From NCBI RefSeq assembly GCF_045037415.1, contig NZ_CP173438.1: a stretch of 64,000 nt of DNA; one strand, written 5' to 3'. A program made the position numbers. The stretch is from Escherichia coli. Lineage in GTDB: Bacteria; Pseudomonadota; Gammaproteobacteria; Enterobacterales; Enterobacteriaceae. Shown here piece after piece: positions 42,001-45,000 of the stretch. Each line of letters starts with the position of its first letter. Within the stretch, counting starts at the first letter, position 1.

Positions 42001-45000
42001 TGCTCCAGTATTGCCAGCGCCTGCGCTTCATCTTTCGCCCAGCCTTCGAACAGACATGCGCCCACGCACGCCCCTTTCATGGGTCCGGTCATCTCCTGCC
42101 AGCGCATTGGCGGCCCGGCGTGAAGCAGTGTTTTGCCCTTGTTTAGTTCGCTGATAAGTGAAGAAGCCGGTTGCACATCCAGCCAGTGTGGACGAGCACG
42201 ACGAATTTGTTCGATAACCGCAGCATTGGCTTGCGCCACTGATGTAAACATGGGAACCCCTTATTGCAAACGTTCTAATAAACGAGCCAGTTTTTTATTG
42301 CCGCCGGCGACTGGCGACCATTGGTAATGCACAACCGGTTTGCTGGCGCTTTGTAGCTCCAGCGCAAAGCTGCGTAATCCGATGTTAATCACGGCGACGT
42401 TTTCCAGTAATGACGGTGTGTGTTGCTGTGTGGCAGGCGAGAGCGGATGAATTAACGCCGCAGCCAGCAAGGTGGCTTCCGGTAGCGAACTCACTACCGC
42501 GATCCCCGCATCTTCCAGCGTGGCGATTTGCTGCGAGCGGCATTGCGGGTCACGTTCAGTGCCTGTCACCGTGGCAATGGCATACAGTGGTTGATTGTCT
42601 GAACGCGCGGCACAGGCTTTTTGCCAGGCGCTCACCAGCGAGGCGGCAGGATCGGCGGTCGCGCCGAAGCCAATCACGACATCAAGCAGCAACACTCGCA
42701 CTTGCGGTTTAGCGCCGAGATCGGCAATTAACAGGTTGCGTAAGGTCGGGTCGATCATCGGATGGGGACGCCCGACGGTGTAAAAATCATCGCCCAGGTC
42801 GAGGATCTGATGTCCGTCGGCGTCCAGCATCATGCCATGTTGATGGGTATCGTCGGCTTCCACGCCAAGGTGTCCGGCAAGTAATCCCGCCGCTTCAGCA
42901 GCCAGCGTACCGCCGGTATACAAACCGCAAATAAATCCGCTGCTGACAGGCGCTATCGCGTTACGTCGCGCAGTGACGCGTGAAAGCAGACAAGCCAGAC
43001 GAGCGGCCTCATCCAGCGAGGAGGCAAACCAGACATTCTCGTCGCGGGCCACCGCCGGGGTATAACCTAAAAACAGCGCCACCGTCGGTTTGCCAGTTGC
43101 TTTCATGGCATTAACAATTTTCAGACGCACAGTTTCGGCAGGTGGTTTTGAAACAAATGCCAGCACTTCGCTTTTCTCGTCTGCACTGAGCATTTCCAGC
43201 GCCGTTAGCGCACTGATGCCGCCCACTTCACGGCTGAGATCGCGCCCGCCAAGACCAATCGCGTGAGTAATTCCCTCCCCTGCCAGCGCAATCTGTGAGC
43301 ACAGCTCCTGAATCCCGGTACCGGAAGCGCCTATGACGCCAATGTTGCCTTCCGGCATCACATTAGCAAAAGCCAGCGGCGTGGCAGCAATCATCGACGT
43401 ACCGCAGTCTGGCCCCATCACCAGCAAGCCTTTTTCCCGCGCGCGGGTTTTAAGTTGGATTTCATCTTCCAGCGTGACGTTATCGGAGAACATCATCACG
43501 TTGAGGTTGCGATCCAGCGCCTGGTTCGCCAACTCCGCCGCATACTCACCAGCCACTGAAATCAGCGCCAGATTGGCATCGGGTAATTTCTGACTGGCAC
43601 TGTCCCAGCGACGCACCTGCGTCAACGCCTGGCTGCTGCCTGAACCCTGCGCCAGTTGTTTTAGCGCCTTTTCAAGCTGCTGCATAACCGCCTGCGCGAT
43701 CCCCGCATCCGCCGCTTCGCTACGAATTGCCACGCAAATATCGTTCGGCGTGGCGTTATTAAAATCGTCATGCCAGAAACCTGTAGTATCTAATAACGCT
43801 TTATTGGCGGGCGTACCCATCATTACGGAAACATCATCAACATTTTCTGATTCGCTGAGTTTTCGTGAAATAATCATTAAACTGACCGAATCCTGAAAAC
43901 ACCCTTTTTTAATAAAGGCGTGGATCATAACAACTCCTTAAAAATTGCACCCATGGCAATTGCACGAGCAGTGTTAATGTGGCGATTACGGTATCGATGA
44001 CAACGAGTAAATAAGGTGATGAATATCACACGGGGATTATTAACAAAAGAATTCAAATAACCGCCAGACTATTACGCGTTATTTTTTAATAAGCATGGTT
44101 GTTTTAAAAACCAGGTTAAAAGCACGAAGATTATCAAATAAATTCTAACTATATTTTTTTGCCTGTCTGGATCACATAATCCAGATATTTTCCCTGTATG
44201 TTAATTGCAGTCATGCTTCACACCGTCGTTAAAAAGGAAGACAGATGAAAATCAGTCGGGAAACACTCCACCAGCTAATCGAGAATAAACTCTGCCAGGC
44301 TGGGTTAAAACGTGAGCACGCTGCAACCGTGGCTGAAGTATTGGTTTACGCCGATGCCAGAGGGATCCACTCTCATGGCGCGGTGCGCGTTGAATACTAC
44401 GCCGAACGCATTTCAAAAGGCGGCACCAACCGCGAACCGGAGTTTCGTCTTGAGGAAACCGGACCGTGCTCGGCAATTTTACATGCCGACAATGCCGCCG
44501 GACAGGTCGCGGCGAAAATGGGTATGGAACATGCCATCAAAACCGCCCAGCAAAAAGGCGTTGCGGTGGTCGGTATCAGCCGGATGGGTCACAGCGGCGC
44601 AATCTCTTATTTTGTGCAGCAGGCTGCCCGCGCCGGATTGATTGGCATTTCGCTGTGCCAGTCCGATCCAATGGTGGTGCCGTTTGGCGGCGCGGAAATT
44701 TACTACGGCACTAACCCACTGGCCTTTGCCGCGCCGGGAGAAGGCGACGAGATCCTTACCTTTGATATGGCGACTACCGTACAGGCATGGGGAAAAGTAC
44801 TCGACGCCCGCTCGCGCAATATGTCTATCCCGGATACCTGGGCAGTCGATAAAAACGGTGCACCAACAACCGATCCGTTCGCGGTACATGCTCTGCTCCC
44901 CGCCGCTGGGCCAAAAGGGTATGGCCTGATGATGATGATTGACGTCCTCTCAGGCGTCTTACTCGGCTTACCGTTCGGGCGACAGGTTAGTTCGATGTAT

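Follow-up and report, generated by a model that had tools for sequence, protein, structure and literature searches.

Class II CRP promoters of the galP1 type, LysR-type promoters (BenM, CbnR and OccR type) and the operators of the IclR-family regulator AllR are the described systems that come closest to the element considered here. In particular, galP1, an established class II promoter, has a single good half-site for CRP, on the promoter-proximal side. Our element lies in a stretch of 64,000 nucleotides of Escherichia coli DNA (the window) that holds the allantoin cluster, in the spacer between the divergent genes fdrA (also called allF) and allD, which encodes ureidoglycolate dehydrogenase. 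The allantoin regulon of E. coli is standard textbook material, but how it is controlled anaerobically and globally is still being worked out; the link between ArcA and allF, for example, dates only from 2025. A preliminary description of this DNA had pointed to a perfect inverted repeat in the spacer as a candidate operator for the LysR-type activator AllS, or for another regulator of the pathway. We find that the conserved unit is not this palindrome. It is an asymmetric heptamer, GATCACA, which overlaps the left arm of the repeat. The features on which this finding turns are the following.

42261-43928, minus strand: fdrA (allF) coding sequence.
43929-44244: fdrA/allD divergent spacer, 316 bp.
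44166-44185: perfect 7-6-7 inverted repeat TCTGGAT-CACATA-ATCCAGA, with arms at 44166-44172 and 44179-44185 and a spacer of 6 nt.
44170-44176, plus strand: heptamer GATCACA, which takes 3 nt from the end of the left arm and 4 nt from the start of the repeat spacer.
44245-45294, plus strand: allD (ureidoglycolate dehydrogenase) coding sequence.

The repeat itself was described correctly as CTGGAT-CACATA-ATCCAG at 44167-44184, although its perfect arms are actually 7 nt long. Its position, given as about 60 bp 5' of the allD start within the divergent region, is also right: 60 nt separate the end of the repeat from the ATG.

For the comparison between species, allD loci were taken from one genome per species, their spacers were aligned, and a gap-free alignment anchored on GATCACA was then made for 26 lineages. 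These include Escherichia, Citrobacter, Klebsiella, Raoultella, Superficieibacter, Buttiauxella, Atlantibacter, Serratia, Erwinia, Pantoea, Ewingella, Rahnella, Budvicia, Pragia, Providencia, Proteus and one Photobacterium; the divergent fdrA-allD layout is kept in most Enterobacterales. The first six letters of the heptamer (G, A, T, C, A and C, at 44170-44175) are each found in 26/26 lineages, and the final A (44176) in 25. The columns of the right arm (44179-44185) are mixed at every position (e.g. the equivalent sequence is ATTTAAG in Klebsiella and TATTTAG in Serratia), and the outer part of the left arm, TCTG, is only partially retained. No compensatory changes between the arms were found across the 26 lineages. 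That is, the conservation check across Enterobacteriaceae that the preliminary description had proposed leaves the repeat with a right arm that does not persist outside Escherichia and with arms that do not co-vary. Because the right arm is specific to Escherichia and unconserved elsewhere, the palindrome as such is very likely not the functional unit that it was taken for. What does stand from the earlier proposal is the placing of the repeat in the allD promoter region, where it overlaps a strongly conserved and almost certainly regulatory element.

Within E. coli, 4843 of 5305 genomes match a 60-bp query spanning the repeat letter for letter; two strains with a single mismatch were checked, and in both the change is T44158C, which lies outside the repeat. 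This invariance is uninformative about the repeat, because the whole of 44129-44247 (the 119 bp adjoining allD) is near-invariant throughout Escherichia.

The palindrome is also no rarer than chance would have it. Perfect 6-6-6 repeats number 31 in the window, and repeats with 6-nt arms and a spacer of 0-12 number 280. The chance level was taken from 2000 dinucleotide shuffles of the fdrA/allD spacer: the probability of at least one 6-6-6 repeat was 0.135, that of at least one 7-6-7 repeat 0.04, and that of at least one 7-nt-arm repeat with a spacer of 0-12 was 0.31. Taken together, the window counts and the shuffle frequencies rule out the palindrome as statistically unusual. Nor were further copies of the repeat accepted as a regulon motif. 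A search allowing up to 2 mismatches gave 8 matches in the window against 1.9 expected, and the other matches were never perfect. CTGG and CCAG may be favoured tetramers in E. coli, and we do not count the excess of 8 over 1.9 as a signal, since dinucleotide shuffles would miss such a tetramer preference. A more general caution is that perfect short palindromes need a conservation check before they are read as operators.

The heptamer stands at a fixed place within the predicted allD promoter, whose parts are listed here.

44129-44149, plus strand: AT-rich block GATTATCAAATAAATTCTAAC, a candidate proximal site for a LysR-type regulator (AllS), with its centre at about -70 relative to the predicted start.
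44197-44202, plus strand: predicted allD -10 hexamer TATGTT, with TAnnnT conserved at a fixed distance.
44209 +/-2, plus strand: predicted allD transcription start, inferred as 7 nt 3' of the conserved -10.
44208-44244: conserved leader with the Shine-Dalgarno sequence AAGGAAG, following the -10.

The gap from GATCACA to TAnnnT is exactly 20 nt in all lineages, gap-free from Proteus and Providencia to E. coli. Within the hexamer, the first T is present in 26/26 lineages, and the A and the final T in 25 each. The combination GATCACA-N19-21-TAnnnT occurs a single time in the 64-kb window. Further upstream, two AT-rich blocks (44100-44121 and 44129-44149) also keep a gap-free, fixed distance to GATCACA in all lineages from Proteus to E. 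coli. Relative to the predicted start, the heptamer falls at about -39 to -33 and the whole repeat at -43 to -24. The heptamer cannot be a -35 hexamer, because a gap of 20 nt to the -10 is too long, and it therefore sits where class II activators bind. Judged from this comparison of sequences, the -40 element of the allD promoter is a previously undescribed and deeply conserved one. The comparison thus yields specific, testable predictions for this promoter: where its -10 box lies, where transcription starts, and which element near -40 is invariant. The supplementary data of Cappable-seq have no entry for the allD/fdrA locus.

Two side observations concern the assemblies in which the locus was found. 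In E. coli GCEC19 (L085, NZ_CP137765.1), the insertion sequence IS1 (at about 1748-2500 of L085) lies inside the repeat, with its junction at window position 44172/44173. It splits GATCACA and parts allD from the upstream activator sites, and it is probably a natural knock-out of the allD promoter. In addition, an allD-fdrA locus of Enterobacteriaceae type, with AllD 83-84% identical to that of E. coli, is carried by contigs whose labels read Chryseobacterium sp. 18061 and Sporobacter termitidis (the latter a metagenome-assembled genome); these assemblies (L009 and L012) are probably mislabelled or contaminated.

As to what binds the heptamer, the reading that we tentatively prefer to each of the others is that the palindrome is an Escherichia-specific coincidence lying over a class II CRP-type promoter-proximal half-site, GATCACA, with CRP bound to cyclic AMP (CRP-cAMP) as the most likely ligand. 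Under this model, GATCACA and its A/T flank would be the functional element at about -39 to -33, 20 nt 5' of the allD -10, and would be one half, the promoter-proximal one, of a class II activator site with its centre near -40.5 or -41.5. CRP-cAMP on the half-site would contact RNA polymerase, and AllS on the upstream AT-rich blocks (at about -100 and -70) would supply pathway-specific activation. The right arm, ATCCAGA, would lie in the fast-evolving spacer between the site and the -10, and would complement the left flank by drift, in Escherichia only. The putative AllS boxes diverge even among E. coli strains, but GATCACA is invariant, and this pattern speaks more for a global, universally conserved factor than for a LysR-type regulator of local reach.

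The likeness to CRP sites was scored with a symmetric CRP matrix of 20-mers, made from 39 novel high-affinity Footprint-seq sites (PMC12871828) with the local fdrA-side site left out. The site that was scored is the following.

44158-44179, plus strand: hypothetical 22-bp CRP-type site, centre 44168.5, with the distal half (44161-44165, GCCTG) unmatched.

E. coli has a promoter-proximal TCACA half-site with consensus flanks (GATCACAttt). In its 20-mer, TTGCCTGTCTGGATCACATA, the proximal half scores +12.2 bits of about 13.4 possible, which only 2 positions of the window attain. The proximal half scores 11.0-13.4 bits in most other lineages and 3.5-5.1 bits in the three Proteus lineages, and flanks and centre together (A-T-C-T...GATCACA-T-T-T) agree with the CRP consensus across lineages. 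Totals for the whole site reach 6-14.6 bits in many other lineages. Set against the local background, the distal halves score modestly higher (median percentile 0.22; 16 of 24 lineages below 0.25), mainly because 44165-44168 tend to A-T-C-T, as in the centre of the CRP consensus TGTGATCTAGATCACA. With the predicted start, the site would be centred at -40.5, or at -41.5 if the start lies 8 nt past the -10. For comparison, what we take to be the galP1 sequence scores 8.9 bits in the same matrix. The weakest CRP sites are reported in the Footprint-seq preprint to depend mainly on one half-site (PMC12871828).

Several points weigh against CRP as the ligand. The distal half in E. coli, GCCTG, matches TGTGA at 0/5 positions and scores -10.9 bits, which leaves a site total of 1.3; as this half has no match, a CRP dimer alone would bind the E. 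coli site weakly. The second half-site, TGTGA 6 bp away, is missing more widely: T at 44161 occurs in no lineage, G at 44164 in only 2, and the TGTG positions are unconserved in every lineage. The two letters before TCACA, G and A, show no variation, which goes beyond what the CRP matrix demands, and the gap from the heptamer to the -10 is 20 nt against a canonical 21. Moreover, Table 1 of the Footprint-seq study, which gives sites with a dissociation constant (Kd) below 10 nM, has only the fdrA-side site for this spacer (PMC12871828), and the supplementary list of CRP sites from ChIP-exo (chromatin immunoprecipitation with exonuclease digestion) has no allD or fdrA entry.

The sister promoter of fdrA/allF, on the other strand of the same spacer, has the following elements.

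44013-44032, minus strand: full CRP site of the fdrA/allF promoter, AAGGTGATGAATATCACACG as written on the plus strand; 12.7 bits by position weight matrix.
43993-43988, minus strand: TAnnnT hexamer TACCGT on the fdrA side.

The CRP site and the hexamer have class II geometry. The site is conserved in 23 of 24 sequences, with TAnnnT 21 nt on along the fdrA strand (L020 is without a strong site). It binds CRP in vitro with a Kd of 9.8 nM in Footprint-seq (PMC12871828), and the allD<>fdrA spacer is a CRP target by SELEX (systematic evolution of ligands by exponential enrichment; PMC3105977). The 2025 study of allF, which dealt with AllS and ArcA, left CRP out of consideration (PMC12535856). Seen together, the two sides suggest that the divergent promoters of the oxamate branch are both of the class II CRP type and co-activated by AllS. 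If this is true, CRP at both promoters would add catabolite control to the allantoin pathway.

The leader on the fdrA side has some structure of its own. Directly 5' of the fdrA Shine-Dalgarno sequence, 43943-43970 contains two copies of the direct repeat AATTGCAC and overlapping palindromes (GCAATTGC and CCATGG), and a terminator-like hairpin lies on the fdrA strand (43970->43948). Citrobacter, Klebsiella and Superficieibacter share the conserved sequence AATTGCACCCATKGCAATTG. The stretch 43943-43970 may be a leader structure that controls allF.

AllS, the regulator first proposed for the repeat, has a described site in this spacer. A database AllS motif (score 1.0) lies at -181 from the allF ATG (Kim & Kim 2025, PMC12535856), and crude lysate containing AllS shifts one 60-bp fragment, allFp -203/-144 (PMC12535856). 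The spacer of K-12 is colinear with that of the window, and a window coordinate is subtracted from 590608 to give the K-12 coordinate; the motif centre thus converts to 44109 in the window. The features that concern AllS are listed below.

44072-44131: AllS-shifted fragment, which contains the database motif and the dyad TTTTAA-N8-TTAAAA at 44102-44121.
44138-44152: ATA-N9-TAT in E. coli, a T-N11-A of the Nac/LysR type centred at about -64 from the predicted start.
58288-59214: allS gene.

Counted from the allF ATG, the repeat lies at -239 to -256, outside the shifted fragment, and the AllS site is about 60 bp further upstream of the repeat. The repeat is 20 bp long with its axis between 44175 and 44176; a symmetric T-N11-A, which has an odd core of 13 bp, is not possible in a dyad of even length. 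The proposal of the repeat as the AllS operator thus finds no footing, since the published motif and fragment both exclude it and its dyad is unfit for T-N11-A.

The upstream AT-rich region is worth some observations in its own right. The Erwinia sequence orthologous to the AllS block 44100-44121 is TGTTAGAAATATTCTAATAAT, with a T-N11-A dyad. The segment that holds the literature AllS site (44072-44128) is variable even among E. coli strains (for example TTAAAAG vs CCAAAAG in strain E69). The block 44129-44152 is at the classical LysR recognition position and lies almost wholly outside the published fragment of the electrophoretic mobility shift assay (EMSA).

AllS could still act near the heptamer in another way, one that would make the palindrome irrelevant and that we consider possible but distinctly less likely than CRP. 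Specifically, the left part of the repeat would be an AllS activation-binding site, with an AllS tetramer on 44129-44152 (about -65/-70) and on an off-axis TGT-N7-ACA at 44164-44176 (about -40). The elements at about -64/-70 and -39 of the predicted start are at textbook LysR-type positions, both contain T-N11-A in E. coli, and the spacing from the AT-rich blocks to GATCACA is rigid across Enterobacterales. In addition, allD is reported to need AllS (Rintoul 2002, as cited in PMC12535856), and the published EMSA, made with crude lysate and a single 60-bp fragment, is compatible with further contacts (PMC12535856). However, activation sites are normally the least conserved of LysR-type sites, whereas here the heptamer is invariant and the putative AllS boxes vary within E. 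coli. GATCACA is unlike the TTAGAA/TTCTAA half-sites of the upstream boxes, the T of the off-axis dyad (T44164) is present in only 15 of 26 lineages with the inner positions unpaired, and the database places the AllS site at 44109.

A somewhat more doubtful possibility is that GATCACA is bound by some other factor, of the CRP/FNR family or a monomeric activator, which might be the anaerobic or nitrogen switch that is missing for allD. Equally doubtful is the fuller version, in which a factor that is neither CRP nor AllS would give allD its anaerobic specificity from within a rigid scaffold that spans about 135 bp and comprises the -10, the heptamer and two AT-rich boxes of the AllS type. A seven-base element (GATCAC in 26/26, final A in 25/26) without a conserved symmetric partner is unusual for a CRP dimer, and the anaerobic specificity of the allD promoter is still without an assigned regulator (PMC12535856). 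On the other hand, no protein offers itself as a candidate, the CRP half-site consensus accounts in full for the motif and its flanks, and the half-sites of ArcA (TGTTA repeats) and FNR (TTGAT/ATCAA) do not fit TCAC. The fallback of the preliminary description, that a regulator other than AllS uses the repeat, is plausible for the asymmetric GATCACA, which resembles a CRP half-site, rather than for the palindrome.

Other known regulators were compared with the conserved columns by eye, and none of sigma-54 (GG-N10-GC), FNR (TTGAT-N4-ATCAA), ArcA, the MarA/SoxS marbox and IHF fits. Sigma-54 and FNR are rejected because the GG is unconserved and TCAC is of the CRP type rather than the FNR type. 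Promoter-like matches on the minus strand that overlap the repeat were also set aside, their hexamers being unconserved. In the PRODORIC predictions cited in PMC12535856, -237 (window 44165) carries a SoxS motif with a score of 0.80, and an OxyR motif is placed at -224. Neither matches the conserved columns, and deletion of soxS or oxyR gave only a modest rise of allF'-lacZ, which the authors considered indirect (PMC12535856). A literature search found no paper tying allD to unmethylated GATC, and a Dam-methylation switch at the invariant GATC would be speculation. In Proteus, the upstream neighbours (serS and a small open reading frame) are uninformative about allS.

It is improbable that the repeat is a true palindromic operator that was gained or retuned in Escherichia, for example for weak direct repression by AllR. 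The AllR features of the window are the following.

56615-56629: AllR operator TGGAAAAATTTTCCA, upstream of gcl.
56683-57498: allR gene.
58165-58179: AllR operator TGGAATATTTTTCCA, between allA and allS.

The 7-6-7 repeat is perfect and essentially invariant in E. coli, and the AllR operators share TGGA...TCCA cores with it (TGGATCACATAATCCA). This invariance is unspecific, however, since all of 44129-44247 is invariant in Escherichia, and repeats of this size are expected by chance. When the repeat is held against the AllR operator pattern (TGGAA-N5-TTCCA, as at the gcl and allS/allA operators), it fails: AllR sites read TGGA-N7-TCCA with A as the fifth base, whereas in the repeat the gap is N8 and that base is T. 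The window contains 8 instances of TGGA-N5-9-TCCA vs 4.6 expected. Moreover, no AllR site is predicted in the spacer, and deletion of allR leaves allF'-lacZ unchanged (PMC12535856).

The least probable reading is that the repeat works as an RNA hairpin in the transcript (a leader attenuator or terminator), for although the E. coli segment folds at -10.9 kcal/mol (z = -3.3; 9 pairs with G-U counted) and is called terminator-like by a consensus scan, its position is 5' of the predicted allD start with no plus-strand gene reading into it, its stem has 3 G-C pairs and its T-run is TTTT followed by CCC, its equivalents fold at only 0 to -2.7 kcal/mol in Klebsiella, Serratia and Superficieibacter and, with different pairing, at -5.6 kcal/mol (z -1.78) in Citrobacter, compensatory changes are lacking, no Rfam family reaches its gathering threshold for the repeat region, and the marks of an intrinsic terminator or leader hairpin (a GC-rich stem, a U-tract, a place in the transcript, conservation) are thus absent.

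Set beside the known systems, the repeat resembles the AllR operators in its inverted TGGA/TCCA cores and in belonging to the same regulon. It differs from them in having one extra bp between the cores, another fifth base and no conservation outside Escherichia, and in lying in a spacer without a genetic or predicted AllR effect. The LysR-type promoters are a closer parallel: like them, the allD promoter is AllS-dependent, with AT-rich dyad-like boxes at about -100 and -70, a conserved element at about -40 and rigid spacing. The -40 element of allD is, however, far more conserved than the upstream boxes and unlike them in sequence, and the axis of the palindrome is unfit for a symmetric T-N11-A. 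Compared with class II CRP promoters such as galP1, the allD promoter would stand apart in its distal half (0/5), its gap of 20 rather than 21 and its need for a LysR-type co-activator, AllS. What it shares with them is a consensus TCACA with an A/T flank just 5' of the -35 position and 20-21 nt from the -10, a poor distal half and, in fdrA/allF, a sister promoter with a full CRP site in the same layout.

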